In this document: positions 1-54,237 of the stretch, piece by piece
Numbering within the stretch: position 1 is the stretch's first letter
Layout: every line of letters begins with the position of its first letter
From: Candidatus Thorarchaeota archaeon
Lineage (GTDB): Archaea > Asgardarchaeota > Thorarchaeia > Thorarchaeales > Thorarchaeaceae
Length of the DNA: 64,000 bases
Assembly: GCA_019894665.1 (NCBI GenBank)
Contig: JAGXOC010000001.1
Span: 18,013-82,012, forward strand
Direction: 5' to 3'
Notes under the pieces: model-generated
The model's database searches: none
Seen by the model: the letters and a program-made list of their open reading frames with translations, nothing else
What the model was told of the DNA's origin: nothing
Translations under genes and position numbers: made by a program

Positions 1-214
1 TTCTCAGAGTGAACGATGAGGCATATCCCGGAGAAGCTCCATTCATTTCTTTAATTCTCTTAATGACTTCGTTGAATGTGATATTCTTTCCACGAAGTTG
101 TAAGCAGAGGTCTCCATCCTCTGTGATATCTAGAAAATTTAGATCATTGCGATTTACACCATAGACTAATCTTGATTTGTCTACTGACCAGGTCTCTTCT
201 ACCACTGCGTTCAC
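1..214 (-). CDS. hypothetical protein, partial (runs off window start). Absent from the ORF track
   Basis: Minus-strand frame is open from the GTG at 212-214 to position 2, with no stop; checked triplet by triplet. It is the last gene of the minus-strand sensor operon. No family recognised. Confidence 0.25.
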   Translation of the reverse strand, partial: MNAVVEETWSVDKSRLVYGVNRNDLNFLDITEDGDLCLQLRGKNITFNEVIKRIKEMNGASPGYASSFTLR

Positions 215-243
215 CCTTGTACATCTTTCTTGATGAGGTGTGA

Positions 244-1713
244 CTATTTTTCGTCTTCGCGAATGGAGTCAAGCATTCCTTGGAACGCCCGAGCGAGCTC
301 GCCAATCTCATCATCTTGCGCGATGTATGTCGCATCGACTTGAAGGTCTCCAGCATCTAGAGGCTGGTCTCTAATTCTCGCTGCAACATTTCTCTCTGCA
401 AGGTCCATAAGATACTGTAATGGCCTTGTAATAGTATTCGAAATGGCAACAGCAACAATTCCTGCCACCACTATACCTCCCATGGTGACAAGGATGATGT
501 AGCTTGCTGCCTGAGCGTTTTGTTCAGCGATTCGTGCCTCCAGAAGTGGAATGCTCTCTAGAACCTCATCCAGAGGTACTGATATGACACAGATGTAGTC
601 ACCTTTCCCAACTTGAGTATATACTAGGATATTTTCCGCTCCGTTTCGAGTGTACCGAAATGTTCCAGAGGCTCCTGGGGTTATACTTGTAATCAGGGCA
701 ACGTGATACTCTGTTATGGCTTCAGTGAAATCCGAATTGATCTCTACATCAGTAAGATATGGCAATCCAGTTATGTAGTCATCCGCGCCTACTTCTGGAT
801 GTGCAACAACTCCACCAATAGAATCCACTAAGAATGCATACCCACTTTCTAATACTTCCACATTGATGACTTTCTCCTTGATGTCTTCTATGGTGATGTC
901 TCCAGAAATGACCGCAAACGGATAGCCGTTTCTGTACACGACCTTTCCGATTGATATCAGAAGCACTTCATCAAACTCATCATAATATGGCTCAACAAAC
1001 ACCATGTCGCCTTCGCCATCCCAGATCGTCTGATACCAATATTCCCCTCTTGGGTCATAGGGATTAGCTGCCCTTGCCGGATCTGTCAGCTCACCTAAAA
1101 TGCTACCCGGATAATTGATGAACAATCCATCGTCTGCAAAGGCGACATAGAGCCATCTGAAATCTAGCTGATTGTGAATCGCCTTGAATAAGTAGTCAAG
1201 ATTTGATACACGCCCCAGCTTGTCAGCATTGGTGGTTTCGTAGGCATCAAAGTCTGTTGAGTCAGTTCCCGCAACATACCAACTGCTATAGTCCCAGGAC
1301 ACATTGAGACCATAACTGAGGTCATAGTGATTATCCGCTGGGGCTGGAGCAGCCGCATCATCCTCGAATAAGAGGTCATAATACACCTCTCGATACTCAT
1401 AGGTTGATCCAGCATCAAAAAGAGATTCAAGTTCCTCTGCAGCTGCGGCAATCATCCCTTCTGCACTAGCCAGTTTTTGGTTAATGACAAGAGCTGTCTT
1501 CTGAGCTGTTTCAACCATGTTTGTCTGAATCTGATTCTCTAAAGCTATGGAGCTCTGATCTGTAGTTGAGTTACCTATCAGGTCCACGAAGGTCAATGAG
1601 ATCAATCCTGTAGCACTCAGTGATACAAGTGAGATTACTAGGAAGGTGAGGATCACGTTTGTCCGGAATTTTCCTTTCTTCTTGGTTTGAGTTGATGACT
1701 TTACCATTTTCAT
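244..1713 (-). CDS. membrane sensor protein: TM, extracytoplasmic Cache-like domain, TM, then a HAMP domain with no output domain
   Basis: N-terminal TM (ILTFLVISLVSLSATGLISL). Periplasmic Cache-like region homologous to the next gene (NGYPFAVISGDITIEDIKEKVINVEVLESGYAFLVDSIGGVVAHPEV). Second TM (IILVTMGGIVVAGIVAVAI). C-terminal HAMP-like helix pair (ITRPLQYLMDLAERN...DEIGELARAFQGMLDSIRE). Confidence 0.7.
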   Translation of the reverse strand: MKMVKSSTQTKKKGKFRTNVILTFLVISLVSLSATGLISLTFVDLIGNSTTDQSSIALENQIQTNMVETAQKTALVINQKLASAEGMIAAAAEELESLFDAGSTYEYREVYYDLLFEDDAAAPAPADNHYDLSYGLNVSWDYSSWYVAGTDSTDFDAYETTNADKLGRVSNLDYLFKAIHNQLDFRWLYVAFADDGLFINYPGSILGELTDPARAANPYDPRGEYWYQTIWDGEGDMVFVEPYYDEFDEVLLISIGKVVYRNGYPFAVISGDITIEDIKEKVINVEVLESGYAFLVDSIGGVVAHPEVGADDYITGLPYLTDVEINSDFTEAITEYHVALITSITPGASGTFRYTRNGAENILVYTQVGKGDYICVISVPLDEVLESIPLLEARIAEQNAQAASYIILVTMGGIVVAGIVAVAISNTITRPLQYLMDLAERNVAARIRDQPLDAGDLQVDATYIAQDDEIGELARAFQGMLDSIREDEK

Positions 1714-1723
1714 TGCACCTCCA

Positions 1724-4597
1724 TTAATAATCCGTAGTAGTCCCTCCGACTTCCAATTGTGCCATCAAGACTCCCACCCTTTCGAACGCTTTCTCGATAT
1801 CCAATCTTACGTTAGAGCTGTCTACAACTGAGAGGTATTGTCCCTGTGGAATTCTTTCACAAATTGATTCCAAGAGCTCTTCTGTTGTGATGTGTTGACC
1901 AGTTCTTGCTGATTTTATGCGTCTATCAGTATCAGCCTTCTGGCTTAGTTCCTGCCCCACGCCAATGATAAGTAGATTAACATCGAGATGGTGGTCTCGA
2001 ATGAAACCCTCGATTGTAAGGGGCCTCTTTCTCTTCATTCGGTCACTATCAGTAAGAATTCCCTTAAGAACATCTAAGGAGTAGTTCTCAGAGCTATTGT
2101 CTTGTCCATCTGTTAATGCGATTACCCATCTATGCTCACTGGACTCGATTTTTTCAAGCTCCTCCAGTGCTCTTCCAAGAGCATCATAGAATGCAGTTGC
2201 ATAATTTGGATACTTGAGAGACATCAATGTCGCCACTATTTTGTTCTCGTCATCTTCTCGTTCTCCCTTCAAAGTGAGAGGTAGAAGCTCTCGGTACGAG
2301 GAGTTGAAGACAATAACAGATACAGCGTCTTGTGGGTTGACCTGACTATGCAGGATTTCTAAGGCGCCTTTTACTGCCGCCCTGATTCTATTTTGTGCTT
2401 GCATGCTGCCTGAGTAGTCAATCACGAATGTAACGCTCTTCTTGAACATTATAGAACGTCTCAGCTTCTCGGCCTTCCTTCGTACATCATGACTGGGCTT
2501 GTTTCGCTCGTCAAGGACATCAGCTAGCCGCTGCATAGCAAACACGACCAACCAAAGCTCGTCAGTTTCTTGTCCGAAAGAGATCGCCTCATTATAGTTA
2601 TCTTCAGCTTTCTTCCATTTGCCCTGAACCTGATGCAATTCGCCTTCATGGTAATGTATGTAAGCTAGACTTCTCACATAGTCTATTGACCTTGCGATTT
2701 CTTGAGCTTCATCAAATTTGGATTGAGCTTGACCATAACGGCCATCGCGCATAAGTACTAGTCCCATGGCGTCGAAACGTTTCGCAAGACCGTATTGGTT
2801 TTGCATTGTTCGATCAATAGCCTCTGCGTCTTCCAAGAGTGCCATTGATTTGTCTGCATGGCCTCGATCCATCTCAACTAGTGCCATGTTGTGGTAGACC
2901 GAAGCGATTCTTACAAGCGCATCTTTCTCATCCACACCATCTTCTTTGGCCTTCTCTAGACGACCTTTTGCGATCGCCAATGACTGCTCATAGTATTGCA
3001 TGGCGCTTCCAGTATCACCACGCTGTCTGAACACATTACCAATGTTGAGAAGCATAATCTGTTCTCCAACATCGATCTGAAGTCTGCGGCTGATTTCCAA
3101 TAGGTTCTGATAGTTAGCTAAGGCTCTGTTTAGGTCCCCACGAATAAAAGCTTGATTCCCAAACCTTGCAGCTTCCTGGAAACTGAGGAGCGCATCAACC
3201 GTCGTTCCGACCTCCTCATACATTGCTCCCGCTGACGTGATTCCCCGTGTGAAATCTTGTCCAGCCATCTTATTCACAAGACGAGTCATCTCGGTTATTG
3301 GTTCGATTACTGATTGTGCTCTTCGATAAGAAACAGTAGTAATCACTCCCGCTACAATTGCTAAGACGGCTCCTAGAGCAATGGTGAGTATGAGGGTCTG
3401 AGTCCCCACTAGGCCAAGCATAGCCGTCGCGGGTCCAATAACATCAGAATTTGGAACTACGATTGCTAACACATATTCTGTATTAGTGACATTGACGAAC
3501 GCCATATGCCATGTTTGTCCTTCCTTTTGAAATTCTTCTAATCCCGACTCTTCCATCAAAACCGTGGTACTTAGCAGATTACTAAATGCAACAGCTTCAG
3601 TGCTAGATGTTGAAGCAAACTCAAGCAACTCTATTGCAAGAGGATCATCAAATGGGTCTAGATCGGGATGAGCAACAACAACTCCATTGCTGTTGAGCAA
3701 ATATGAATATCCATTTTCCAATACTTCAAGATTCAATACTTTCTCATTTATTGTTGACATTGATACATCTGCAGATACTACACCGATGAGTGTACCATTG
3801 TCAAACCTTACTGGTCTTCCAATAGATATGACAAGTCCAACTGATAGATCAATGTACGGTTCTGTAAAGACAACACTATCGTCACCTGGATCTTGTGCTA
3901 CAACGTTCGTATACCAAAGCTCTGCATTGGGATCGTAGTCTTCTGCAGGTGAAACTGGATTTCCCTCATCATCCTCTTGGAAATAGAAGAGGTCGTCGAA
4001 CGGATAGTTTCTGAAAAGATGCTGATCAGATATTCCCAAATCGAATCCCATATAGAGCCATCTAAAGTCTTCATTCATCTCATGAAGCGCTCTGAATATA
4101 TTCACCATGTTGGATGAAATATCGAGCACATTCTGTGTACCAGGAGAAAGGTCATGGGGATCATTATTATTCCATGCGAAACGTGGCATATAGTAGCAAT
4201 CCGTTCCAAATGTGATGTAATCCGAATAATAGGCATCGACAATATCTTGCTCTGTTTCAAAGGTCAGATCTCCCCAATTGGGTTCATCCGCTTGATTCCA
4301 ATAGTAACTGTAACGTGATGTCGCATTTATCCGGTCATTGAACAGGTCTTCACAATAAGCTTCCATCATATACACGCCATCAACGTAGTTCTTCCATCTC
4401 TCTTCTATGAAGAGACCTGTATCATTGGAGAGTCTCATCAGGTTAGCCAGTTCTTCGGCTTTCAGTTCCGCCGCGGCATCAGCTGCGTTTGCATTTGACA
4501 CGTCATTTATTGCAATTATCGATAAAGAAGAAATTACTAAAATCGGTATTAACGCAACAGTGACGAATGTGACTACTATTCGTTTCGAGATATTCAT
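1724..4597 (-). CDS. membrane sensor protein: Cache-like domain, HAMP, TPR repeats and a von Willebrand factor A (vWA) domain
   Basis: N-terminal TM. Cache region paralogous to the 244-1713 gene (NGTLIGVVSADVSMSTINEKVLNLEVLENGYSYLLNSNGVVVAHPDL). Second TM, then HAMP (YRRAQSVIEPITEMTRLVNKMAGQDFTRGITS). TPR-like repeats (YYEQSLAIAKGR...ALVRIASVYHNMALVEMDRG...). vWA with MIDAS motif (VTFVIDYSGSMQ ... VIALTDGQDNSS). Confidence 0.7.
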   Translation of the reverse strand: MNISKRIVVTFVTVALIPILVISSLSIIAINDVSNANAADAAAELKAEELANLMRLSNDTGLFIEERWKNYVDGVYMMEAYCEDLFNDRINATSRYSYYWNQADEPNWGDLTFETEQDIVDAYYSDYITFGTDCYYMPRFAWNNNDPHDLSPGTQNVLDISSNMVNIFRALHEMNEDFRWLYMGFDLGISDQHLFRNYPFDDLFYFQEDDEGNPVSPAEDYDPNAELWYTNVVAQDPGDDSVVFTEPYIDLSVGLVISIGRPVRFDNGTLIGVVSADVSMSTINEKVLNLEVLENGYSYLLNSNGVVVAHPDLDPFDDPLAIELLEFASTSSTEAVAFSNLLSTTVLMEESGLEEFQKEGQTWHMAFVNVTNTEYVLAIVVPNSDVIGPATAMLGLVGTQTLILTIALGAVLAIVAGVITTVSYRRAQSVIEPITEMTRLVNKMAGQDFTRGITSAGAMYEEVGTTVDALLSFQEAARFGNQAFIRGDLNRALANYQNLLEISRRLQIDVGEQIMLLNIGNVFRQRGDTGSAMQYYEQSLAIAKGRLEKAKEDGVDEKDALVRIASVYHNMALVEMDRGHADKSMALLEDAEAIDRTMQNQYGLAKRFDAMGLVLMRDGRYGQAQSKFDEAQEIARSIDYVRSLAYIHYHEGELHQVQGKWKKAEDNYNEAISFGQETDELWLVVFAMQRLADVLDERNKPSHDVRRKAEKLRRSIMFKKSVTFVIDYSGSMQAQNRIRAAVKGALEILHSQVNPQDAVSVIVFNSSYRELLPLTLKGEREDDENKIVATLMSLKYPNYATAFYDALGRALEELEKIESSEHRWVIALTDGQDNSSENYSLDVLKGILTDSDRMKRKRPLTIEGFIRDHHLDVNLLIIGVGQELSQKADTDRRIKSARTGQHITTEELLESICERIPQGQYLSVVDSSNVRLDIEKAFERVGVLMAQLEVGGTTTDY

Positions 4598-4645
4598 CTA
4601 TCTTCCACCACTTCTTTGAATCATGAAACTCATCGGCAACTCTCT

Positions 4646-6088
4646 CTAACCACTCCAGGTAGCTAATTCATCCATCAACTTTCTCTCAAAATCGTTGATG
4701 TCTTGTTTCTTTTCCAGGATGAATTCATCCCCTGATAATGCGCCTTGTACAGTTCCTTCACCAAGGAGAATGATAAGGGTCCGTCTTAGAATTCTGCGGT
4801 CGATTCCTGTTTCCTTTTCAAGACGTCCCACGTCTAACGTATCAGTTCCACCAAGGAGGTCTTGAAGAGTACCTTTCACCTTCTGGATATCCTTTCTTGA
4901 AGGTACTGGAATCTTCTTCTTCTTGGACTCCGTTCTTACGAACATATGGCCGTCAATGTGTCCCTCAATCACATCACTCTGAATCATTGCTTGGAGGCTA
5001 CGACGTAGATTGTATGCAGCAGGTCTGGGTAGTGTTCGTCGCAGAATCCGGTCCAGCTCCTTGAGTTTGATTTTGTTGTGTTTCGATGTAATCGAATCAA
5101 TGCTTTCCTGAATGTACTCTTCAATCACATATTCTTCAATCATCTCTAATTGTGCGCCACAGGATGAACAGACTGATGCTTCTGGCGATGTTGGAGCACC
5201 ACAGTTACCACACTTGATGGCTCTCCTGTATAGAACCGTCTTTGTCGATCCAATCTGCTGAAGAATCACTTTCTCAGTCCTTGTCACTTTTCCAGACTCT
5301 TGGACTTCCCAGAAGCTCAACTTTTGATCTTTTGTACTCACAACAAGAAAAGCGACATCCGATACGTCATCTGGAACTCCAGTAGCCATGGACCTTGGTG
5401 TATCGCCAACGTCAAGTCTCGCTACTTCATTTCCATCAATGTCCCACATTCTCAGAGTTGGTGATTGATCTCCAGTTATGAACAGAGTTCTATCACCGAA
5501 TGAGAGTACTGCAAAGACTGAAAGACGTGAACCTAGTTGTAGTTCTTTCAGCTGATATCCTGCCGCTGTGAGGACAGTAATCAGACCCTTCTTGTCTGCT
5601 ACAACGACTTCTAGTTCAGTATCCTTTGTGATATCCTCAAGCCAAACATCAGCGATGGGGTCTCTCATGGTCTTTGTGAAAATCGCATCTTTATCATCAT
5701 TATACAGGATTACGCGATTGTTTTGCAATGCAACAACAACTTCAGCGGCATCATCACCGTCTATATCTCTGGCATCACAAGCAACAACGTTACTCTCCAG
5801 TCGGATATTCCAAACAGGACTTCCTCTATGATCAACAACGAGGACCTTCTTTCCGACTCCTCCAACTAAAGCATCCTTTCCTTCACCCTCGACATCCCCT
5901 ACAGCAATACATCTGACCTTGCTGCTCCATTTTCTTGTGCTCCGAAGTGTGCCTCGCGCATCAAAGACTCTCAGACGGTCTCCATAGTCTAGAGAGAAAA
6001 TTTGAGTGCTAGCGTCCTGTCTCTGACGAACATAGACGGAATATACATTCGCAGACGTAGGTACCTCCGCAACCGAGCGAATTTTCAA
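4646..6088 (-). CDS. beta-propeller (FG-GAP/PQQ-like) protein with an internal zinc ribbon and a C-terminal winged-helix-like region
   Basis: Repeated strand-rich segments with a DxDGD-type motif (ARDIDGDDAAEVVVAL, LVGGVGKKVLVVDHRG). Zn ribbon CGNCGAPTSPEASVCSSCGAQL. Basic/helical C-terminus (IDRRILRRTLIILLGEGTVQGAL). Confidence 0.5.
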   Translation of the reverse strand: MKIRSVAEVPTSANVYSVYVRQRQDASTQIFSLDYGDRLRVFDARGTLRSTRKWSSKVRCIAVGDVEGEGKDALVGGVGKKVLVVDHRGSPVWNIRLESNVVACDARDIDGDDAAEVVVALQNNRVILYNDDKDAIFTKTMRDPIADVWLEDITKDTELEVVVADKKGLITVLTAAGYQLKELQLGSRLSVFAVLSFGDRTLFITGDQSPTLRMWDIDGNEVARLDVGDTPRSMATGVPDDVSDVAFLVVSTKDQKLSFWEVQESGKVTRTEKVILQQIGSTKTVLYRRAIKCGNCGAPTSPEASVCSSCGAQLEMIEEYVIEEYIQESIDSITSKHNKIKLKELDRILRRTLPRPAAYNLRRSLQAMIQSDVIEGHIDGHMFVRTESKKKKIPVPSRKDIQKVKGTLQDLLGGTDTLDVGRLEKETGIDRRILRRTLIILLGEGTVQGALSGDEFILEKKQDINDFERKLMDELATWSG

Positions 6089-6157
6089 CTTCTAACCTGC
6101 ACCTTGTGCACTCTAGTTGCATAGCCATATAAGTGTGCATAGATTCCGAGCAAAACG

Positions 6158-7234
6158 ATGAGGAATTCAGACACTTGTAGGGTTGGTTTTCTCTGGAATC
6201 CTAGTTTAGAGACCTTCGATTTTGGTACCAAGCATCCAATCAGGATTGGACGATTCCAGATGGTTCGTGATTTTCTTGAAGCTAATAATTTCCTTAGCCA
6301 ACCTAATGTTGAAATCCTTACCCCTGAACCAATTCCAGATGACTTACTGAAGATTATTCATGCTCAGAATTATTTGAATGAGGTCCGAAGAATCTCCGAA
6401 ACTGGTGAAGGTGAGATTGCCGTCGATACACCTGGATACCTAGGGATATTCGAGAATGCAAGTATAACCTCTGGTGCAACCGTTACGGGAGTTCGTGCTA
6501 TAGCGTCTGGGCGTATAGACCATTTCCTATCGCCAACCGGAGGATTCCATCACGCTAAATTTGATTGGGGCGGAGGATTCTGCATCTTCAACGATGTTGC
6601 TGCGGCAGTCTATGAGTTGAAGAAACTAGGCTATCATCGAATACTGGTTGCGGATTTTGATGTTCATCACGGAAACGGGACACAGACATATTTCTATGAG
6701 GATCCAGATGTCATGCAGATTTCATTCCATGAAGATCCTGAGTGGATGTTCCCTCATGATGGGTTCATTGAGGATATCGGAGAAGGGCCTGGTCGTGGAT
6801 ATAACATCAACATGCATTTCCCTATGGACTCCTGCGACGGAGTTTACAAGTATGCCTTTGATGAGATTGTGCCCCGACTAGTGGAGTTCTTCAAACCTGA
6901 ATTCATAATCTTCCTCCCCGGATTCGATGCCCATTATAGAGACCGTCTTGCCCACCTCAACCTAACAACTGACATGATTAGATACATCACTACATTCTTT
7001 CACAATGCTGCCCACAGATACAGCGAGTGTCGGTTTGGCGTCCTAGCAAGCGGTGGCTATTCCAAAGATTCCCTGAATTGGGGTATCGGAGTAGTCATGT
7101 CAGTGCTCTCTGGTTATGACTATGAGCCACCGAAACAAGAACCCCCCTACGGAGATGATGATGAGACTTGGGACACTGTTCGAGGGAATGTTGAGAAAGT
7201 CAAGAGCCTCGTTTTTCCTGAACTTGGAATCTAG
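6158..7234 (+). CDS. histone deacetylase / acetoin-utilisation AcuC family deacetylase
   Basis: Class I/II HDAC signature (ADFDVHHGNGTQ, Zn/charge-relay His-His). GGGFCIFND motif. Length typical of the family. Confidence 0.8.
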   Translation: MRNSDTCRVGFLWNPSLETFDFGTKHPIRIGRFQMVRDFLEANNFLSQPNVEILTPEPIPDDLLKIIHAQNYLNEVRRISETGEGEIAVDTPGYLGIFENASITSGATVTGVRAIASGRIDHFLSPTGGFHHAKFDWGGGFCIFNDVAAAVYELKKLGYHRILVADFDVHHGNGTQTYFYEDPDVMQISFHEDPEWMFPHDGFIEDIGEGPGRGYNINMHFPMDSCDGVYKYAFDEIVPRLVEFFKPEFIIFLPGFDAHYRDRLAHLNLTTDMIRYITTFFHNAAHRYSECRFGVLASGGYSKDSLNWGIGVVMSVLSGYDYEPPKQEPPYGDDDETWDTVRGNVEKVKSLVFPELGI

Positions 7235-7246
7235 GATGTTATCTCA

Positions 7247-8125
7247 TCAATCTGGTTTCCAGAAATGTAGTAGATATTCGAAAGTCGTTGTAAGTGTGAT
7301 ATAGTTTGAAGGCCAACCAAAAATCCCAACCTTGTTCACAATGTTCCGTCTATCCCAGATGATAGTATTTCGAAGTTCATATCCAACCTTTTGAAGTGCT
7401 TCAACGACGTCAATGTGAATTGGGACTCGCTTTCCCTCCCACCAATAATCTGTGATGTTGATTACACAATGACCTCTTGGTTTGAGAATTGGTAGTATTC
7501 CTTTAAAGATATCACCGAGAGTATCAGCATACTCATTCACTTCCATCGTGCCCAGGTCTCTAGGGTCTTTGGAATACTGCTGTACTTTCAGAAAGTGCTC
7601 ATCTTCCCTGAGGTCTCCTCTCTTACTCTTATTCTTACGTTTCCTATTCAGAAGGTTTGCGTATGGTGGGGATGTGACACATAGACTCACAGTTTCATCA
7701 TCAAAGTAATCGTGAATATTCTTGGCTTCATCATGAATCGCCAGCTGACTTGAACCATTCTCATTACTTAACACTCTTGAATTTGCATGATCAACATACT
7801 CTGCCTTCAGATCAAAACCAACTGCATTACGGCCTAGATCCTGTGCAGCAACTAATGTTGTACCGCTTCCTACAAACGGGTCAATAACGAGCTCACCTTG
7901 ATGGGTGAACAACTTGATGCATTTAGTTGGAAGTGAAATTGGAAAAACAGCAGGATGTACGTTCTTGTCTCGAATGTCCCTCTTCTCGTAATAAAACTCC
8001 CATATGGCGATCTGTGACTGCATCCACTCCTTTGCAGTCAAGCAGTTGATGTGTTTTGGTCGGCAATCACATGTACGTGTGTGTCCAATCTTCAGAGGTT
8101 TCGAAATCTCCTGCAAAAGCATCAA
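7247..8125 (-). CDS. DNA N4-cytosine/N6-adenine methyltransferase (PF01555-like). Motif I precedes motif IV
   Basis: AdoMet motif I (IDPFVGSGTT) preceded by HPAVFP. Catalytic motif IV is SPPY (VTSPPYANL). A C-terminal EYLLHFWKP motif resembles the E.ilvF.K motif of this family. Confidence 0.75.
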   Translation of the reverse strand: MMLLQEISKPLKIGHTRTCDCRPKHINCLTAKEWMQSQIAIWEFYYEKRDIRDKNVHPAVFPISLPTKCIKLFTHQGELVIDPFVGSGTTLVAAQDLGRNAVGFDLKAEYVDHANSRVLSNENGSSQLAIHDEAKNIHDYFDDETVSLCVTSPPYANLLNRKRKNKSKRGDLREDEHFLKVQQYSKDPRDLGTMEVNEYADTLGDIFKGILPILKPRGHCVINITDYWWEGKRVPIHIDVVEALQKVGYELRNTIIWDRRNIVNKVGIFGWPSNYITLTTTFEYLLHFWKPD

Positions 8126-8177
8126 GAGTCAATTACTCATCATCCATATGGCACTTGCTATTTTTCAAATCATCAAT

Positions 8178-9794
8178 CTATGAGAAATTGGTTGATTCAA
8201 TGAATATTGACTGGAAATCTTTGTGAGATGCCAACTCAATGTAATTGACTTTGGAGACGAAATCTTCAGCAACCTTTCTCGCCTCTGATGAAAGAAGAAG
8301 CGCTTTTGCACCTTCTCCTGCTGCGTTGCCCACCTGAATGATCTGTTCTCTCCTAATGGGCGGTAGCAACCCAATCCGAAGTGCACTCTCAGGTTGGATA
8401 TAACTTCCAAATGCACCTGCTAACATCACGGAATCAATATCATTGACAGCGACCCCAGCTTCCTGCATCAGTATTGTAATCCCTGCATGAATTGCAGCCT
8501 TCGCCAACTGAACCTGTCGAACATCTTTCTGAGTGAACGAAATCTTACGCGATACATCTGACTCTTCTACGAGCAAGTAACTTAGTCCAAAATCATCATC
8601 ACGGTATACTCTGGGAGAAACCGACTGTATCCCTCCAGTATCATTAATTATTCCAGTTCGTCGCATCTCTGCAACAGTATCAACAATTGCTGAACCACAG
8701 ATGCCTTGTGGTGCAACATTACCAATGACCGTAATTTCCGGAGGTTCTTCCAGGTTTTCGATTAATACGTGCTCTATGGCTCCTTCTTGGCCCCGCATTC
8801 CATATCGTATAGTTGCTCCTTCAAAAGCTGGTCCTGCCGCTGCTGAACAGCACGATAATTCTCCTCGGTTTGATAGGACAATTTCACCATTGGTTCCAAC
8901 ATCAATCCCTACAACAATCTGATCAGACAAGTCCAATCTCTGAGAGAGAATGAAACCAACGGTGTCTCCCCCAACAAATCCCGCGATGTTCGGTGGTAGA
9001 TACACCTCAATATTGGGAGCAGACAATAGACCCAATTCTGAACCTGAGGTGACTAATGCATCTCGAATAGACGGTTCATATGGTGTGACCCCCAATGATT
9101 TGACATCTGCGCGTAGTAATAGGTGGTGCATTGCTGTGTTTCCAACAATCGCCATTCTTGTCAGGTATTCCATCTCAATACCTGAACCCTCTATGAGAGA
9201 ACCAACCATCGAATCAAACTCTGTTGTGACTCTCTTTGAGAGCTCCACTTGCCCATTTTCCTCTCTGAGGGCATGCGTAATCCTTGATATGACATCCTCG
9301 CCAAAGACCACCTGTGGATTGAGTGATGCTAATTGACTCATCTGAACTCCTGAGCCCAATGCAAGGAGATATGCCACAATTGTGGTTGTTCCCAGATCGA
9401 TAGCAATTCCATAACGACCTTCGCCTCCGGTATCTGGAATCCAATCCTCCAGTCGAGAGACCCCCTCGGTAAGTATCTGTACCTCACCTCGTCGCTTAGT
9501 TATTACAACTCGTGTGTCTGCCATCACTCTGTGTTGACATGCCAAACGGACACCTTGCGCTAGATCACCCGAAGATATCCTTCTCTCATCTTCGAGTGTC
9601 GGCTCTGGGGCTGGCTGTAGAACAAGTGAGCATTTCCCACAGGTTCCTGCACCTCCACAATCTGAGGACAAATGAAGTCCGACCATCCTTATGGCTTCAA
9701 GAAAAGTGTTCTGTTCATCCATGGATATACGTAGACCAGATGGCTCGAAAACGACTATGTATTTCTTCAATCTACTCAATCCTTGTGGTGTCAT
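8178..9794 (-). CDS. RACo-like corrinoid reductive activase: [2Fe-2S] ferredoxin domain fused to an ASKHA-family ATPase
   Basis: N-terminal plant-type ferredoxin Cys pattern (SDCGGAGTCGKCSLV ... LACQH). ASKHA phosphate-1 motif (GIAIDLGTTTIVAYL). Later Gly-rich motifs (VGIDVGTNGE, IVGNTAMHHLLL). Divergent from a corrinoid/Fe-S enzyme gene. Confidence 0.6.
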   Translation of the reverse strand: MTPQGLSRLKKYIVVFEPSGLRISMDEQNTFLEAIRMVGLHLSSDCGGAGTCGKCSLVLQPAPEPTLEDERRISSGDLAQGVRLACQHRVMADTRVVITKRRGEVQILTEGVSRLEDWIPDTGGEGRYGIAIDLGTTTIVAYLLALGSGVQMSQLASLNPQVVFGEDVISRITHALREENGQVELSKRVTTEFDSMVGSLIEGSGIEMEYLTRMAIVGNTAMHHLLLRADVKSLGVTPYEPSIRDALVTSGSELGLLSAPNIEVYLPPNIAGFVGGDTVGFILSQRLDLSDQIVVGIDVGTNGEIVLSNRGELSCCSAAAGPAFEGATIRYGMRGQEGAIEHVLIENLEEPPEITVIGNVAPQGICGSAIVDTVAEMRRTGIINDTGGIQSVSPRVYRDDDFGLSYLLVEESDVSRKISFTQKDVRQVQLAKAAIHAGITILMQEAGVAVNDIDSVMLAGAFGSYIQPESALRIGLLPPIRREQIIQVGNAAGEGAKALLLSSEARKVAEDFVSKVNYIELASHKDFQSIFIESTNFS

Positions 9795-9886
9795 GGAAGG
9801 GGTTGTGTATTGTTTTTACTGTTCTCCTATGGAAGAATGTATTAGTTGCGTTGCTGTGTTTGCGCTATCAAATTGGAGACCCACTA

Positions 9887-11248
9887 ATGTTTGTGAGAAC
9901 TGGTGCATGTGATCCCTCATCATGCAACAATGAGTGTCTTGAAGCATGTCAAAGAGTGCATGGTGACGTATCACCATTGACTTTTCAAGAGGGTCAGGAC
10001 TATCCAGTAATCAACCTTGAAACATGTACCACCTGCCTTGCTTGCGTTCGCGCCTGTCCGTTTGATGCTATTACAGCAGAACGTACCGACGGGAGAAGTC
10101 CACCTAGGCCGGTTGAATTGAGTGTCCATGAGGGGTCAGATTATAGCCCCTATGAGGTGGCGGACGGTCTCAAACAAATATCAGAGGCTGACACAGTCTT
10201 TGCAAGAGTCCAATTCGATTCCGAGTTTCAATATTATCACCAGACTGAATTCTCTGGTGCACAGCTGATGATCTCGAAAGATATACCTGGATATGGTCGG
10301 TTTGAGCATGAGCTCAGCGTCGCAGCATGGAAGCTCTACGACTCACGCAACTCAATACAACGACCAGGAATAGGTCTTGACCCGGATGCCAGCGAGGCTG
10401 GGGAAAAGAATGTGACCAATCCTGAAGAATTGACTCAGATGGTGAAGAAAGCTGCACGATTCTTTGGTGCAGATCTTGTTGGGATTGCTCCACTTAATCG
10501 AGATTGGTTATACACTTTGAATCGGCGAGGAGAACCGAATATTGTTCCTGAATCATTGGAATTTGTTATCGTTATGGCAATAGAGATGGACTATGACGCT
10601 ATAGCAACATCACCCGCCTTCACGAGCTCAGCAGCGACAGGTCTTGGATATTCATCAATGGCTTTTGCTGAACTTGAACTTGCCGCCTTTATCCAAAGGC
10701 TTGGTTATAGCGCAATGACATCTGGTAACAATGTATCGCTAAGTGTTCCACAAGCAATTGATGCTGGTCTTGGCCAATATGGACGTCATGGGATACTGAT
10801 AACAAAGGAATTTGGTCCGCGGGTGCGGATTGCAAAAGTACTCACGGATATGCCACTTCTGAGGGACTATCCAAATGAGGGCTTTTGCAAATCAGTCGTG
10901 CGCTTTTGTGAGACCTGCAAGAAATGTGCAACCTCATGCCCCTCTCAATCGATACCATACGGTAAAGAACAGACCTGGGGAGGAACCAGCATCTCGAATA
11001 ATCCTGGCGTCAAGAAATGGTACGTCAATGTTGAGAGCTGCTATGGGTTCTGGGTTGAGAATGGTGCGGAATGTTCTAATTGTATCCGTTCATGCCCTTA
11101 CAACAAAAAGGATGGAAGCTTTCATCGGATGATTCTGTGGTTTGTACAACATACACCTTGGCTTAATCGATTGATCGTCAAAATGGATGACATTGCTGGA
11201 TATGGTAAACAAAAGAGTGGAAACAGGTTTTGGAAGAAATTTAGTTGA
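9887..11248 (+). CDS. reductive-dehalogenase-like (RdhA/QueG superfamily) corrinoid Fe-S protein with an N-terminal ferredoxin-like extension
   Basis: Start moved to the ATG at 9887, because the track start at 9512 overlaps the RACo gene. N-terminal CTTCLACVRACP. C-terminal twin cluster motifs CETCKKCATSCP and C-x10-CSNCIRSCP, the Cx(n)CxxCxxxCP pattern typical of RdhA. No Tat signal peptide. Confidence 0.5.
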   Translation: MFVRTGACDPSSCNNECLEACQRVHGDVSPLTFQEGQDYPVINLETCTTCLACVRACPFDAITAERTDGRSPPRPVELSVHEGSDYSPYEVADGLKQISEADTVFARVQFDSEFQYYHQTEFSGAQLMISKDIPGYGRFEHELSVAAWKLYDSRNSIQRPGIGLDPDASEAGEKNVTNPEELTQMVKKAARFFGADLVGIAPLNRDWLYTLNRRGEPNIVPESLEFVIVMAIEMDYDAIATSPAFTSSAATGLGYSSMAFAELELAAFIQRLGYSAMTSGNNVSLSVPQAIDAGLGQYGRHGILITKEFGPRVRIAKVLTDMPLLRDYPNEGFCKSVVRFCETCKKCATSCPSQSIPYGKEQTWGGTSISNNPGVKKWYVNVESCYGFWVENGAECSNCIRSCPYNKKDGSFHRMILWFVQHTPWLNRLIVKMDDIAGYGKQKSGNRFWKKFS

Positions 11249-11320
11249 TGTGTCCGCCGACGGAAGGCATAATTAGCGGGGCTCTATGATTCTAGTGTCC
11301 GATGCTACCAATAATACAAT

Positions 11321-12841
11321 GTGATTTGTGCCAACAATAACATGAATAAATCTGATTTCGGAGTATGGGTTGATATGCCACAAAATGCTGGAAAGCGGGC
11401 AAAAAAGGGGAAAACTAAGACTCCAAAGAAAGAGAAATTCAATCTCCCCGATTTTAATGATGAAATTCTAAACGATATTATCAACAACTCACTCGAAGGA
11501 ATCGGAATCATAGGTGAAGATTACAAAATTGAGTATGCCAACGAGAATTACTGCAAGATTCTTGGTGTTCCTAACCTCATAGGTCATGACTTCCGCAATT
11601 ACTTTGAACAAGATCTGTGGAAAACACTTTCTGACCGCTATGGAGCAAGGCGAAGAGGTGAGGCTCTATCCGGTGTGTATCAGATGAATATCATTCACAA
11701 GGATGGAGAAGTCCGCACAGTTGAAGGTCGGGCTTCCATGGCCATTGGTCCTGACGGAAAACCAAAGATTATTGCACATCTCTTGGATATCACAGAAGTC
11801 CTTGCTGACTCAGAGGCTCTTGAAGAATCAGAGACTCGCTATCAGATGTTAATTGAAACAATGGATGATGGCTTAGTCATTGACGACCCGGATGGAAATC
11901 TCGTTTATACAAATGATGCTTTCTGCAAAATGCTTGGTTACACTTCTGATGAGATAGTTGGAACTTCATGGATTGATTTGACTGAAGGTTTGAACTCTGA
12001 GGATATTGCAACGAAAATTGCAGAGCGAAGATCTGGGAAATCCGAGAGTTACGAGCTACGCTGGATTACTAAGTCCGGTGAGAGTGTGCCAACTATTGTC
12101 TCAGCAACACCTTACATCGACAGAGATGGGAAGTTTGTAGGGACATTTGCAGTGATAACTGAAATCTCGGAACAGAAAGAAGCTGAGGCCGCTGTCCAAT
12201 TCTATCTTGATCTATTAAGCCATGATATTGCAAACCAACTCCAGGTGATAATGACTAGTAGTGGTCTTCTAGAGGAAGAAGTTCCCGCATCATATATTGA
12301 TGACGCCCGAAAGGACATCTTGGACGCTGTAGAGCGATGCAATAGACTCATCACAAAAGTAAAACGTGCGGCTCAAATCCGATACATTCCCCTATCTCGA
12401 ATTGATGCGATGCCAATCTTAAAGGAAAAAATCAAGGTCCTAGAACGAGTTTATGGTGCAAAGGTGCACCTTCAAGGATTGAAGAAGATTCTTCCTGTTG
12501 AGGCTGATGTCCTACTAGGTGAGATGATTTGGAATCTTCTTGAGAACGCAGCACGTCATAATCCAAAGGACGAAAAGCAGGTGTGGGTTACTTGCGAAAC
12601 AAAAACCGATACATGCAGCATTGTTATTGGTGATGATGGTCCAGGTCTCAGTGATATGAGAAAAAAGACTCTATTCACTGAACGAAAACATGGTGGCGGA
12701 GTAGGACTTACTCTGGTATCTCAAATGATCCGAAAATATGGTGGGTCGATCGAGGTACAGGATCGGGTAATTGGCAAACCAGCTATGGGCACAAAGTTTA
12801 TTGTCACTCTGAGAACGGCAGACCCTCGCGAGAAACGATAG
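11321..12841 (+). CDS. sensor histidine kinase with tandem PAS domains
   Basis: PAS cores (IIGEDYKIEYANENYCKILG; VIDDPDGNLVYTNDAFCKMLGY). H-box LSHDIANQLQVI. N-box LLENAARHN. G1 DDGPGL. G2 GGGVGLTLVSQMIRKYGGSIEV. Confidence 0.8.
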   Translation: MICANNNMNKSDFGVWVDMPQNAGKRAKKGKTKTPKKEKFNLPDFNDEILNDIINNSLEGIGIIGEDYKIEYANENYCKILGVPNLIGHDFRNYFEQDLWKTLSDRYGARRRGEALSGVYQMNIIHKDGEVRTVEGRASMAIGPDGKPKIIAHLLDITEVLADSEALEESETRYQMLIETMDDGLVIDDPDGNLVYTNDAFCKMLGYTSDEIVGTSWIDLTEGLNSEDIATKIAERRSGKSESYELRWITKSGESVPTIVSATPYIDRDGKFVGTFAVITEISEQKEAEAAVQFYLDLLSHDIANQLQVIMTSSGLLEEEVPASYIDDARKDILDAVERCNRLITKVKRAAQIRYIPLSRIDAMPILKEKIKVLERVYGAKVHLQGLKKILPVEADVLLGEMIWNLLENAARHNPKDEKQVWVTCETKTDTCSIVIGDDGPGLSDMRKKTLFTERKHGGGVGLTLVSQMIRKYGGSIEVQDRVIGKPAMGTKFIVTLRTADPREKR

Positions 12842-15841: not shown

Positions 15842-16618
15842 ATGGGACTTCCTGGATTAACTTCCTCTCAGATGATTGAAGTAGACAGAATAATGATGGA
15901 TGAACTAGAAGTTCCCGTGGACTTGATGATGGAGCACGCGGGTAGCAATCTAGCAAGATTGTGTGTCACTCTTTCCCCCACACGTGATGGTGTCTTTCGA
16001 GTTATTGCTGGTTCTGGGAATAATGGTGGGGGTGGGATAGTTGCCGCACGTAGGCTCATGAGTTGGGGTCATGACGTTATCATATACCTGCCGCGTGGAA
16101 AAGAGAGCCTTAGATCTGTGCCATTAGAGCAGTTGAGGCGTGCTGAAAGAGTCGGTGTCAAAATCGTCAATGGTCTCCCAGAAGCTTCCACCGAACAACA
16201 ATGTCTCGTCATAGATGCATATCTTGGCTACGGCTATCATAAACAGAACGATTCCATTTCTGAGGCTGTCTTTTCATATCTTCGGAGCGAATCAAAGATT
16301 GTATCACTTGACGTTCCATCTGGGCTTGACTCAACCACTGGTGCATCGCATAGTCTGTTCAATCCTATTGCAACTATGACCATTGCTTTTATGAAGAGTG
16401 GACTACTCATAGGACCGAAAAACTTGATAGGAACCTTATTCATTGCTGACATTGGAGTACCTATGGATATCTATGAATCAAGATTGAACCTTTCATGGAA
16501 ACCCCCCTATTCGCTGTTCAGTCTGAACTCCTTGTATCTAGCATTCTCTCAAGACCCGCTTCAACAAGTCAAGTTGTCAAAAACTGATAATGGACCAACC
16601 TGGTCTGTATCGTTCTAG
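15842..16618 (+). CDS. nnrE: NAD(P)H-hydrate epimerase (YjeF N-terminal domain)
   Basis: YjeF_N signature: VIAGSGNNGGGGIVAARRL. DAYLGYGY. Confidence 0.65.
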   Translation: MGLPGLTSSQMIEVDRIMMDELEVPVDLMMEHAGSNLARLCVTLSPTRDGVFRVIAGSGNNGGGGIVAARRLMSWGHDVIIYLPRGKESLRSVPLEQLRRAERVGVKIVNGLPEASTEQQCLVIDAYLGYGYHKQNDSISEAVFSYLRSESKIVSLDVPSGLDSTTGASHSLFNPIATMTIAFMKSGLLIGPKNLIGTLFIADIGVPMDIYESRLNLSWKPPYSLFSLNSLYLAFSQDPLQQVKLSKTDNGPTWSVSF

Positions 16619-17696
16619 GATAAGCATCAAGTATTCGCCTGTTTCGAAAAAATCTTCAGACATCAAGGGTATGAGTGAACTTGCAATGATCAACGAGCTG
16701 ATGGAAATATCTGAGAAACTTGCAAATGATCGCAAGCAGAATCCAGTACTGCTGGCACGTATGGAGTTTGCATGTAAGGGACAGTCACCTCGGTTTCTCA
16801 TTATTTCACCCGTCACTAGGAGTGGCCAGGATTTACAGCTGTTCAATATGAGCATGGGGGATGCATTTCATGCTACGCGGATCCCGGGACATGCTTTGCT
16901 TCCGCCTGACTTTGCTCCAACTCTATTCAAAGGACCTGCGTCATTTAATCGCGACTTCCCTCACCAGAAAGGTGTGATTGTAACCTTTGATATTGATGAG
17001 CCATTGGAAATCATTAGAGAAACCATTGAGAACATATCACTTCATCACGATTTGAATACACTTCCACTTATTGCCTTTCAGATAGATTATCAAAATGGTC
17101 GAGTAAAACTCATTGTGCATGGTAAAGGACGCACCTACGAATATGAGAACATATTGCTATCTCGAATTAGAGTGCCTGATGAATTGGATAATGACCTTCT
17201 TGTTCTTATTTGTTCAGACTCTAGAGTTCATCCACCACACTCAAACAACGGCATCCCAATGGCAATACGAACTCTCGGTGGATATGTTCCTGAATACAGT
17301 GGGAATCATGATGAGACAGAACAACTAAACGAATTTTTCCAGAAATGGCTGTCTTCTACTGGTAATTCAAAGATAATTCTCGTTGTAGCTCATGGTAACT
17401 TTGAAGGAGAAGGAGATTCCTGCGCGGCTGGAACTGCATCGCTGAATCCAGATACAATATCAAACCCCTCCCTAAAACCCACCATAGAAGAGTTAAAGCG
17501 AGCTGCCGAGGAATTTGAAAGTGGTCCACCCAGGAATCCAGAAGATCGCGTAAAGTCATTATCAAAAGCAACTCGAGCTAATCTTCTAACTTACCCAGCG
17601 ATTGCAGATGCAGAGAGTATGTTCCAACTCACAATAGATGAACTATTGATGGATACAGTCACTAATACGCTATCTCAATCTGACATTTTCGAATAA
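16590..17696 (+). CDS. hypothetical protein with a divergent beta-carbonic-anhydrase-like motif
   Basis: LVLICSDSRV matches the CxDxR zinc-ligand motif of beta-CA. A second His/Cys region (VVAHGNFEGEGDSCAAG) has non-canonical spacing. An alternative start at 16671 (MSELAM...) would remove the overlap with nnrE. Confidence 0.35.
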   Translation: MDQPGLYRSRISIKYSPVSKKSSDIKGMSELAMINELMEISEKLANDRKQNPVLLARMEFACKGQSPRFLIISPVTRSGQDLQLFNMSMGDAFHATRIPGHALLPPDFAPTLFKGPASFNRDFPHQKGVIVTFDIDEPLEIIRETIENISLHHDLNTLPLIAFQIDYQNGRVKLIVHGKGRTYEYENILLSRIRVPDELDNDLLVLICSDSRVHPPHSNNGIPMAIRTLGGYVPEYSGNHDETEQLNEFFQKWLSSTGNSKIILVVAHGNFEGEGDSCAAGTASLNPDTISNPSLKPTIEELKRAAEEFESGPPRNPEDRVKSLSKATRANLLTYPAIADAESMFQLTIDELLMDTVTNTLSQSDIFE

Positions 17697-49565: not shown

Positions 49566-49566
49566 A

Positions 49567-49818
49567 CTATTCGTCGTCTTCCTTTTGGTTGTCTTCCCAG
49601 ATTCGACCAAAGAATACGAATGCCAGAACTAGTTCGGATCCGCTAGCATTCTGTGCAATATGCTCAATTGACTCACTGATTGTGTCCTCATGTTCCCATG
49701 CCTGTCGAGCAAGGTTTACAATGTCTTCAAAGCGGTGGTCAGGTATATCGAGAGCCTGTGTGAGTTTTTTCACGTCATGGCTGCCAACAACAAGTGTGCC
49801 GAGGTCATAGGTAGGCAT
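49567..49818 (-). CDS. hypothetical small protein
   Basis: 83-codon ORF convergent with the FGGY kinase gene and divergent from glpA. No motif. Confidence 0.3.
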   Translation of the reverse strand: MPTYDLGTLVVGSHDVKKLTQALDIPDHRFEDIVNLARQAWEHEDTISESIEHIAQNASGSELVLAFVFFGRIWEDNQKEDDE

Positions 49819-49963
49819 TGGTCATTCACTAAATCAACCCGCGAATATCTCCTTTTAATGTAATCTTGACTATCATTTACTTTCTTATCCAATCCGAAAC
49901 CTTAGTATTGCACGCACGTTCACTACACATATCCAAACCCCCGAAGCAGTATCTCAGGAAAAG

Positions 49964-52990: not shown

Positions 52991-52991
52991 A

Positions 52992-54230: not shown

Positions 54231-54237
54231 ATGCCAA

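Follow-up and report, generated by a model that had tools for sequence, protein, structure and literature searches.

An Asgard family of Cache/HAMP receptor pairs with TPR and vWA domains as output, and its branch linked to a probable arginine decarboxylase gene in a thorarchaeal operon

We analyzed a stretch of 64,000 nt from Candidatus Thorarchaeota archaeon (contig JAGXOC010000001.1 of assembly GCA_019894665.1, positions 18,013 to 82,012; in the following called the window), which begins with a minus-strand operon of receptor genes. According to the list of open reading frames, three complete genes and one partial gene, here called A, B, C and D, lie co-directionally within positions 1–6088. 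They are separated by spacers of 48 (A/B), 10 (B/C) and 29 nt (C/D), and D runs off the edge of the window, just as an earlier reading of the letters without database searches (the sequence-only reading) had placed them. Gene A encodes a soluble protein with a beta-propeller, B and C encode a long and a short membrane receptor, and D is assigned to speA, the gene of the biosynthetic arginine decarboxylase. The close homologs of A and B all come from metagenome-assembled genomes (MAGs) of Thorarchaeota, with 58–100% identity. Beyond this close circle, B and C are members of a large Asgard family, so far undescribed, in which Cache/HAMP receptors occur in pairs and the output is made of tetratricopeptide repeats (TPR) and a von Willebrand factor A (vWA) domain; one branch of it is tied to arginine decarboxylase.

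Hydropathy analysis yielded two transmembrane (TM) segments each for B and C, with the N-terminus inside, the ectodomain outside and basic residues on the cytoplasmic side, and no TM segment for A. From this two-TM topology it follows that the Cache domains are located outside the cell, and HAMP, TPR and vWA inside. The sensor domains had initially been called periplasmic, but because the host is an Asgard archaeon they are extracellular instead. Both ectodomains are strongly acidic, with 64 Asp and Glu versus 14 Lys and Arg residues in B, and 60 acidic versus 17 basic residues in C.

In the long receptor B, Pfam recognized dCache_1 (61.9 bits, cut-off 45), TPR_12 (61.8 bits), VWA_2 (51.4 bits, cut-off 27) and VWA (40 bits, cut-off 23.8). 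The AlphaFold2 model, with a predicted local distance difference test score (pLDDT) of 78, consists of a long TM1 helix, a double Cache domain, TM2, HAMP, ~12 TPR helices and the vWA domain. Pfam missed the HAMP domain in B itself; residues 430–480 are in register with those of the relatives in which Pfam does recognize HAMP (14 of 30), and we therefore call it HAMP by homology. The model places helices 433–444 and 457–486 in this region, the second HAMP helix continuing unbroken into the first TPR helix. The TPR helices span residues 489–717, with a pLDDT of ~90 through most of the solenoid; among solved structures, they come closest to the peptide-binding TPRs of LGN/Pins, kinesin light chain and OGT. 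The vWA domain contains all residues of a metal ion-dependent adhesion site (MIDAS; D727-x-S729-x-S731, T801 and D830). In a 30-member alignment with identities down to 21%, D727, S729, T801 and D830 are invariant and S731 is present in at least 90% of the proteins, and a complete, metal-binding MIDAS is thus predicted for B. When the vWA profile was compared with the PDB, the best matches, with a top E-value of 6e-15, were an uncharacterized 387-aa protein (8S05), ITIH, BatB, the anthrax-receptor vWA and vWA2, the Sulfolobus ArnB paralog (5A8J). The succession of HAMP, TPR and vWA with an intact MIDAS, which the sequence-only reading had described, is hence recovered, with TPR and vWA assigned by Pfam, HAMP by its register with the relatives and the MIDAS by residue conservation.

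A catalytic output domain was found in neither B nor C. Pfam detected no HisKA, HATPase_c or response regulator domain in A, B or C, and no MCPsignal domain in B, C or 30 family members. The public name “Methyl-accepting chemotaxis protein McpC” of the B ortholog P0014 (Thorarchaeota AB_25) is an over-annotation, given that this family has no MCPsignal domain. The public names of other B relatives include “Mg-chelatase subunit ChlD”.

The short receptor C exceeds the Pfam cut-offs for dCache_1 (54.2 bits, cut-off 45) and HAMP (32.6 bits, cut-off 25). Its HAMP domain was located at residues 424–486 of 489, in agreement with the earlier description of a shorter sensor that ends after HAMP. B and C are paralogous throughout the first ~430 residues (28% identity over 434 aa, E = 7e-36), and dCache_1 is above the cut-off in both, which bears out the proposal of two paralogous Cache sensors. 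Counting loci whose sequence extends far enough, C adjoins B in 53 of 53 Thor-type and 13 of 13 distant loci, a conserved synteny that rules out a chance arrangement. In all nine further loci, which represent other subfamilies, a short dCache_1 protein of 472–576 aa likewise lies beside a long one, and the long and short genes of these further subfamilies are often 4–17 nt apart or overlap.

The history of the pair can be read from pairwise scores. In 11 of 13 systems, the short ectodomains score 156–714 bits against the short proteins of other lineages and 53–178 bits against their own long partner. The long partners mirror this pattern, and the long and short subtrees share their branching order. 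A tree that strictly separates the long from the short partners in all 13 systems was recovered in 0 of 100 bootstraps, with weak support under a crude distance measure, because the locus L075, and nearly also L080, hold mutually similar partners; our evidence for the ancestry of the pair is the pairwise score table and not this split. Since the short partners are closer to foreign short proteins than to their own long partners, the pair is ancient and co-inherited, and the mirrored scores indicate that the duplication is older than the split of the Thor, Loki and Heimdall lineages and that both genes have been inherited together since. Such co-inheritance is as expected for subunits of one receptor, and B and C would accordingly form a heteromer; an ancient obligate pair lends support to the hetero-oligomer idea in the sequence-only reading. 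At two loci on short contigs, on which no speA was seen, the short partner measures 651–665 aa and carries HEAT-like repeats after HAMP, i.e., an output (L063, 4784–6781; L064, 2700–4655).

To delineate the family, we searched 1.84 billion cluster representatives exhaustively and identified 137 relatives of B at a maximum E-value of 1e-30. More than 100 of these, counted as clusters at 50% identity, are full-length proteins of ~850–990 aa with the same architecture and 22–40% identity. In a set of 30 members, Pfam assigned dCache_1 to 30, VWA to 29, TPR to 29 and HAMP to 14. For the genome scan a 10-sequence alignment was used as the query, the 30-sequence one being too diverse for it. The organism-labeled members belong to the Thor, Loki, Hod, Heimdall, Hermod and Sif groups, all of them Asgard, with the single exception of a MAG labeled Bathyarchaeia (L071; DATKZI010000011.1). 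The order B-C-speA-decarboxylase, the protein lengths and the C-terminal tails at this locus match those of the Heimdallarchaeota loci, and the label may result from mis-binning or gene transfer. Judging from neighboring genes only, the remote subfamilies are probably Asgard too. A 290-kb metagenome contig that bears one remote long/short pair (L078) also encodes, at 15959–16646 and in neighboring genes, a dynamin-like protein (Dynamin_N, Dynamin_M, GED), a protein combining leucine-rich repeats with a dual-specificity phosphatase, and a papain-like protease.

In the literature searched, we found no publication on dCache, HAMP, VWA and TPR together, nor a relevant one on Asgard vWA or Cache proteins. 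The architecture had been called unusual from the letters alone; it does differ from that of characterized receptors, but it is no one-off, being shared throughout a large Asgard family. The same gene arrangement recurs in several Asgard classes. Neither a failure of the domain assignments nor a lack of co-conservation, either of which the sequence-only reading had named as fatal to its proposal, was found, because the Cache, HAMP and vWA calls hold in profile or structure tests and the genes are co-conserved across these classes.

Gene D is represented in the window by a fragment that matches full-length orthologs of ~600–635 aa (phmmer, E = 2e-19). Over their full length, these orthologs scored 349.3 bits (Thor), 344 bits (the Heimdall locus L072) and 385.5 bits (L061) against the SpeA equivalog model NF003763, whose cut-off is 369. 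They carry both the pyridoxal phosphate (PLP)-lysine and the Cys motif: YPVKVNQ, the PLP-lysine motif, and HxGSQ, GGGLAIDY and DITCDSDGE align to solved SpeA structures. By these alignments gene D is probably speA, of the biosynthetic arginine decarboxylase family, with its catalytic motifs predicted to be intact. This assignment, which the sequence-only reading had not made, gives the best clue to the function of the operon. We found speA in 42 of 43 Thor-type loci, in 10 of 12 distant loci and in addition in a Lokiarchaeota locus. B, C and speA thus remain neighbors across Thor, Loki, Hod and Heimdall, even though the B proteins are only 31–40% identical, and they stay together through rearrangements. 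In L061, L062 and L066 (Heimdall/Hod-type), speA is divergent and lies upstream of B, but is still adjacent.

In one Heimdall clade, a second fold-III PLP decarboxylase gene directly follows speA (L065, L069, L071, L072 and L073; e.g., L072, 15248–16690). It encodes a protein of 460–481 aa resembling LysA and D-ornithine/lysine decarboxylases, below every equivalog cut-off. The SpeA proteins themselves end in a tail of the form D[ED]DPY[MFIYL] in 47 of 50 distinct orthologs from L001 to L073 (e.g., L005, 13392–15242). This tail does not align to bacterial SpeA, the solved representatives of which run on for ~46 residues of unrelated sequence, and it may be a docking motif. Other neighbors are less widely shared. 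The histone deacetylase (HDAC)-like gene that diverges from A is present in nearly all Thor-type loci and not in the distant ones, and a LarE-like gene after speA is likewise restricted to Thor. An identification of the HDAC-like neighbor as an acetylpolyamine amidohydrolase (APAH) was unsupported: HDAC6 catalytic domains and bacterial HDAH scored ~157–199 bits compared to 116 bits for APAH, and no NCBIfam model matched.

The ectodomain finds its best solved matches in Mlp37 and PctA (E ~1e-12). The pocket of B is composed of Y221, E226, W228, Y229, Y248, D250 and D277, and in the alignment to PctA (5LTX) the residues Y121, R126, W128, Y129, Y144 and D173 correspond to Y221, E226, W228, Y229, Y248 and D277, respectively. 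C has the pattern YEWYYDD, identical to B. In the AA_motif of the dCache_1AA domains, Y121, R126 and W128 (PctA numbering) line the carboxylate side of the ligand, and Y144 and D173 the amine side (Gumerov et al. 2022); the carboxylate-binding Arg is common to all amino-acid-sensing dCache_1 domains (PMC8915833). Both B and C have Glu at the R126 position and therefore fall outside dCache_1AA. The amine-binding subclass dCache_1AM is defined by an AM_motif with a small pocket insertion and specific aromatic and acidic residues, and is reported from a single archaeal phylum, Halobacteriota (Cerna-Vargas et al. 2023).

Among the loci of the genome scan, nearly all of which have speA, Arg occupies the R126 position in 0 of 67 B and 0 of 62 C proteins. 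The residue is Glu in 56 and Gln in 6 of the B proteins, and Glu in 30, Asp in 23 and Gln in 7 of the C proteins. By contrast, the Arg is kept by ~73% of the long relatives in the wider family (92 of 126), and 45 proteins have the full canonical motif. Two R-type systems that were read, L080 and L081, are without speA, and the E-type Loki system is with it. The primary-amine triad Y248/D250/D277 is invariant. Agmatine- or polyamine-binding dCache domains are known from McpU and TlpQ, with nanomolar to micromolar affinity (PMC6234866). As the amine-binding set has been kept and the carboxylate-clamping Arg lost, a cationic amine free of a carboxylate is the expected ligand. The wider family would then consist mostly of amino acid sensors, and the speA-linked branch would have been retuned to a decarboxylated cationic ligand, e.g., agmatine or putrescine.

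For protein A, Pfam returned Beta-prop_CGLA (27.9 bits, cut-off 26.8) as well as weak FG-GAP, BBS2 and Itfg2 matches. The AlphaFold2 model (pLDDT 84) shows 24 strands in six blades, followed by a long helix, a Zn ribbon and two winged helices. The propeller, the CxxC ribbon and the winged helix of the sequence-only reading are therefore all present, with two winged helices rather than one. Foldseek matched NHL, IFT-A, BBS and ITFG2 propellers (E ~1e-13 to 1e-15), which are generic fold matches in a whole-model result dominated by the propeller. The Zn ribbon was matched in 18 of 18 C-terminal fragments of A orthologs, and C293, C296, C307 and C310 are invariant among 34 orthologs. For the C-terminal half, Pfam gave weak PCI-domain matches in 11 of 18 fragments (best E = 7e-4), and a profile search of the PDB yielded no solved relative by sequence, only Zn-ribbon noise.

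The more than 160 full-length A orthologs (61–100% identity) are all Thor-type. A lies immediately upstream of B in 49 of 50 Thor-type loci, and likewise in Loki and in L057/58. With a hidden Markov model of the propeller, A-like genes were detected beside B/C pairs in L057–62 and L079–81. Altogether, A-like propellers adjoin the pairs in four lineages, at the loci of Thor, L057/58, Loki, L061/62, L080 and L081, some of which are without speA. These propellers bear Zn-ribbon and/or winged-helix modules in varying order. In the remote subfamily of L075, a protein with a Band_7 (SPFH) domain and a Zn ribbon is encoded just upstream of the long receptor (5469–6878), at the position of A in Thor.

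Across 44 aligned upstream regions of A, a TATA-like box and an AAGGTG motif are conserved (Table 1). The former is the putative promoter of A, and the conservation of both fits one transcript from A onward. The sequence TGTGCA occurs twice, at 6105–6110 and 6134–6139, 29 bp apart and on either side of the TATA-like box. This pair, which could be an operator, is conserved solely in the closest Thor clade; elsewhere, the same TATA box is surrounded by short repeats that differ from clade to clade or from this pair.

Table 1 Genes, protein domains and upstream elements of the operon in window coordinates; residue numbers refer to the respective protein.
Feature	Position	Strand	Remarks
Gene A	4646..6088	-	480 aa, TTG start; cytosolic; propeller, Zn ribbon and two winged helices
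A, six-bladed FG-GAP-like beta-propeller, residues 1-263	5300..6088	-	Repeated DxDGD-type motifs; model
A, CxxC...CxxC zinc ribbon, residues 292-314	5147..5215	-	Zn_Ribbon_1, E = 5e-5
A, two winged helices and basic linker, residues 322-479	4652..5125	-	Secondary structure of the model
Gene B	1724..4597	-	957 aa; long receptor: dCache_1, TM, HAMP, TPR, vWA
B, TM1, residues ~7-29	4511..4579	-	Preceded by K5 and R6; hydropathy maximum 2.65; continuous helix 2-86 in the model
B, extracellular dCache_1, residues ~35-385	3443..4495	-	Pfam; alignment to PctA 5LTX
B, TM2, residues ~396-420	3338..3412	-	Followed by RR; hydropathy maximum 2.67; helix 383-426 in the model
B, divergent HAMP, residues ~430-480	3158..3310	-	Register with relatives; nearly invariant among Thor orthologs
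B, TPR solenoid, residues ~481-717	2447..3157	-	~12 helices; Pfam TPR_12, TPR_2, TPR_MalT
B, cytoplasmic vWA, residues ~720-950	1748..2440	-	Pfam VWA_2 and VWA; followed by the conserved C-terminal tail ...EVGGTTTDY
Gene C	244..1713	-	489 aa; short receptor: dCache_1, TM, HAMP
C, TM1 (~19-41), dCache_1 (~45-400), TM2 (~404-428), HAMP (429-486), acidic tail	within 244..1713	-	
C, HAMP	256..429	-	Pfam; the protein stops 3 residues after it
Gene D	1..214	-	GTG start at 214; first 71 codons of speA, the rest beyond the window edge
AAGGTG Shine-Dalgarno-like motif	6100-6105		Upstream of A
TATA-like box (CTTATAT on the minus strand)	6127..6133		39 nt from the start of A and 25 nt from the divergent HDAC-like gene, upstream of both
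HDAC-family deacetylase gene	6158-7234	+	Divergent from A, 69 nt between the start codons

Taken together, we favor a model in which B and C constitute a heteromeric sensor for an amine of the polyamine type, agmatine or a relative, with a partner-binding MIDAS/TPR output, in an Asgard signaling operon; we assign this reading a probability of roughly 0.45. B and C would probably assemble into one hetero-oligomeric transmembrane receptor, to whose ectodomains the amine would bind. Agmatine or a related polyamine would belong to the product line of the adjacent speA and is therefore the most economical candidate. The signal could then pass via TM2 and HAMP into the fused TPR solenoid and the MIDAS vWA, rearranging the TPR-vWA scaffold, and the output would be a change in the cytosolic proteins held by this scaffold, without catalysis. 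Protein A, which would act as a transducer and possibly as a transcription regulator of the operon, appears the most likely partner and, where present, is probably the best candidate downstream; SpeA is a secondary candidate by way of its conserved acidic DPY tail. Besides this tail, two further conserved peptides are candidates for docking, namely the C-terminal end of B, which reads EVGGTTxDY in Thor and VEGFxxD in Heimdall, and the acidic tail that follows HAMP in C. A resulting shift in speA transcription or SpeA activity would place polyamine synthesis under feedback control. Heteromer, ligand, binding partner of the vWA and TPR domains and direction of regulation are all presumptive in this model.

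Several observations weigh against it. The entire receptor family is known from sequences and predicted models alone, and the prediction of the ligand combines one substituted position with gene context. At the R126 position, an aromatic F, W or Y takes the place of an acidic residue in a small number of Heimdall B proteins linked to speA, and L075, which lacks speA, also has Glu there. In the model of B, the HAMP region is of low confidence (pLDDT <50 at 423–472). The winged helices of A are closer to the PCI type than to classical DNA-binding ones, and the SpeA tail motif is possibly structural and not for docking. Finally, one Heimdall clade and four remote loci lack an A-like propeller within 9 kb, from which it follows that A is no universal output.

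The same receptor might also bind a ligand other than a polyamine, such as a metal ion, a basic peptide, a quaternary amine, or arginine in a rearranged pocket, with speA merely one of the genes that the system regulates. A single pocket position was analyzed, the aromatic residue at this position in some Heimdall B proteins is reminiscent of cation-pi pockets for quaternary amines (PMC10104139), and such acidic ectodomains could serve general cation binding. The primary-amine triad, however, is invariant, and the loss of the carboxylate clamp tracks the presence of speA, which leaves this reading rather unlikely in our view. A more skeptical reading regards the linkage to speA as meaningless, and A, B and C as a generic sensor module in an inherited gene order. 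It can draw on the paralogous B/C pairs that adjoin unrelated genes and on the HDAC-like and LarE-like neighbors, whose conservation ends with Thor. We consider it unlikely, given that the adjacency is kept at 31–40% identity of B and despite the inversion of speA relative to B, and that the change in the pocket is confined to the group linked to speA.

Other readings concern the cytoplasmic side. The most far-reaching would be a previously unrecognized prokaryotic mode of transmembrane signaling, in which the Cache/HAMP heteromer controls a cytoplasmic, integrin-like pair of MIDAS vWA and FG-GAP propeller that directly holds or releases SpeA or the Zn-ribbon/winged-helix regulator, without phosphorylation or a second messenger; we hold this to be quite unlikely. 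The inventory of alpha-solenoid, vWA, beta-propeller and Zn ribbon, the generic similarity of the propeller to IFT-A, BBS and ITFG2, and the Asgard host could instead point to a structural role, i.e., a membrane scaffold or coat made of COPII and integrin-head building blocks and positioned by the receptor. But the propeller matches are fold-generic, the vWA matches ArnB-like, ITIH, BatB and anthrax-receptor domains and not Sec23/24, and the Cache-HAMP front end is a classical signaling input, so that we judge such a scaffold improbable. The vWA could also be an adaptor for a MoxR-type AAA+ machine, chaperone- or chelatase-like, comparable to BatA/BatB, CoxE and ChlD. Weak VWA_CoxE matches in 11 of 30 members, BatB among the solved matches (E = 2.5e-10) and the ChlD names of some relatives lean this way; with no MoxR/AAA+ or DUF58 gene in any speA-linked locus, we regard it as very improbable.

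No extracellular sensors are more common in prokaryotes than the Cache/HAMP receptors. To our knowledge, those characterized all feed a kinase, a chemotaxis array, a cyclase/phosphodiesterase or a phosphatase, and a large, conserved and apparently Asgard-specific family with a pure protein-docking output would therefore add a new output class. Sensing of polyamines or agmatine coupled to speA would be a concrete and testable function, and a natural switch from an amino acid pocket to a presumed amine pocket is relevant to the prediction of receptor ligands from sequence. For Asgard archaea, in which genetic work is next to impossible, the expressible ectodomains offer a biochemical way into signaling.

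No tRNA or Rfam element was found in the window. The genes at 7247–12841 encode an N6/N4 DNA methylase, a RACo-type corrinoid activase (2Fe-2S and ASKHA), a 4Fe-4S protein and a PAS-HATPase kinase; at L002 the operon is flanked by the same methylase and RACo genes and by genes for MtrH and a B12-binding protein. At 24075–27968 (plus strand), a protein of 1297 aa is oddly built, with a TrmB-type winged helix at its N-terminus and long apolipoprotein-like helical repeats behind it. A glycerol-use cluster at 48093–55665 (plus strand) comprises an FGGY kinase, GlpA/B/C-like subunits of an anaerobic glycerol-3-phosphate dehydrogenase and a FAD-linked oxidase.

Among known systems, the bacterial dCache_1-HAMP receptors (PctA/B/C and Mlp24/37 for amino acids, McpU and TlpQ for polyamines, agmatine and histamine) share with B and C the N-in topology with two TM segments, the extracellular double Cache domain and the HAMP domain after TM2, and with B also the pocket residues Y, W, Y, Y, D and D. 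Unlike them, B and C have no methyl-accepting chemotaxis protein domain, kinase, cyclase or phosphatase, the output consisting of TPR and vWA. They further differ from the bacterial amino acid receptors of the dCache_1 type in the Glu that replaces the carboxylate-binding Arg, in the obligate long/short pairing and in being archaeal.

The only characterized proteins with dCache_1 and vWA in one polypeptide are the alpha2delta subunits and CACHD1 (PMC8915833). In these, both domains are extracellular and the vWA is inserted in the Cache domain, whereas the vWA of B is cytoplasmic and located beyond TM2, HAMP and TPR. Although CACHD1 and alpha2delta-1 were among the solved matches to B, we rejected a specific kinship, since the vWA match (E ~2e-7) is far behind the top one (6e-15) and the Cache domain is nearer to bacterial PctA and Mlp37. 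Quite unlikely, but conceivable, is a connection of this family, which combines an amino-acid-type dCache_1 with a vWA in one polypeptide, to the origin of the eukaryotic Cache-vWA proteins, Asgard archaea being the closest archaeal relatives of eukaryotes. The Bacteroides aerotolerance proteins BatA and BatB resemble B in their membrane-anchored vWA and TPR, the BatB structures being matched at E ~1e-10. They are, however, without Cache and HAMP and are accompanied by MoxR and DUF58 genes, both absent here. With the integrin head, which pairs the FG-GAP propeller of the alpha subunit with the vWA-like MIDAS domain of the beta subunit, the operon has in common that an FG-GAP-like propeller and a MIDAS vWA are co-encoded, and integrin I-domains were weakly matched by the vWA of B. 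This resemblance is one of parts only, as A and the vWA of B are both cytoplasmic, and homology beyond the shared folds is unsupported.

In the ArnA-ArnB system, which represses motility in Sulfolobus acidocaldarius (PMC6509490), an archaeal cytosolic MIDAS vWA likewise acts in signaling with a Zn-finger partner. ArnB itself is soluble, with its vWA inserted in a beta-sandwich and a C-terminal four-helix bundle that carries phosphosites, and it is controlled by Ser/Thr phosphorylation, which the FHA domain of ArnA reads. By contrast, the vWA of B is fused to a membrane receptor and appears in the model as a plain vWA after the TPR, A has a propeller and winged helices in place of FHA, and no FHA protein is encoded in the loci; B is accordingly no ArnB-type regulator. 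Among experimentally studied systems, ArnB with ArnA comes closest as a precedent for a MIDAS vWA protein that signals in the archaeal cytosol.

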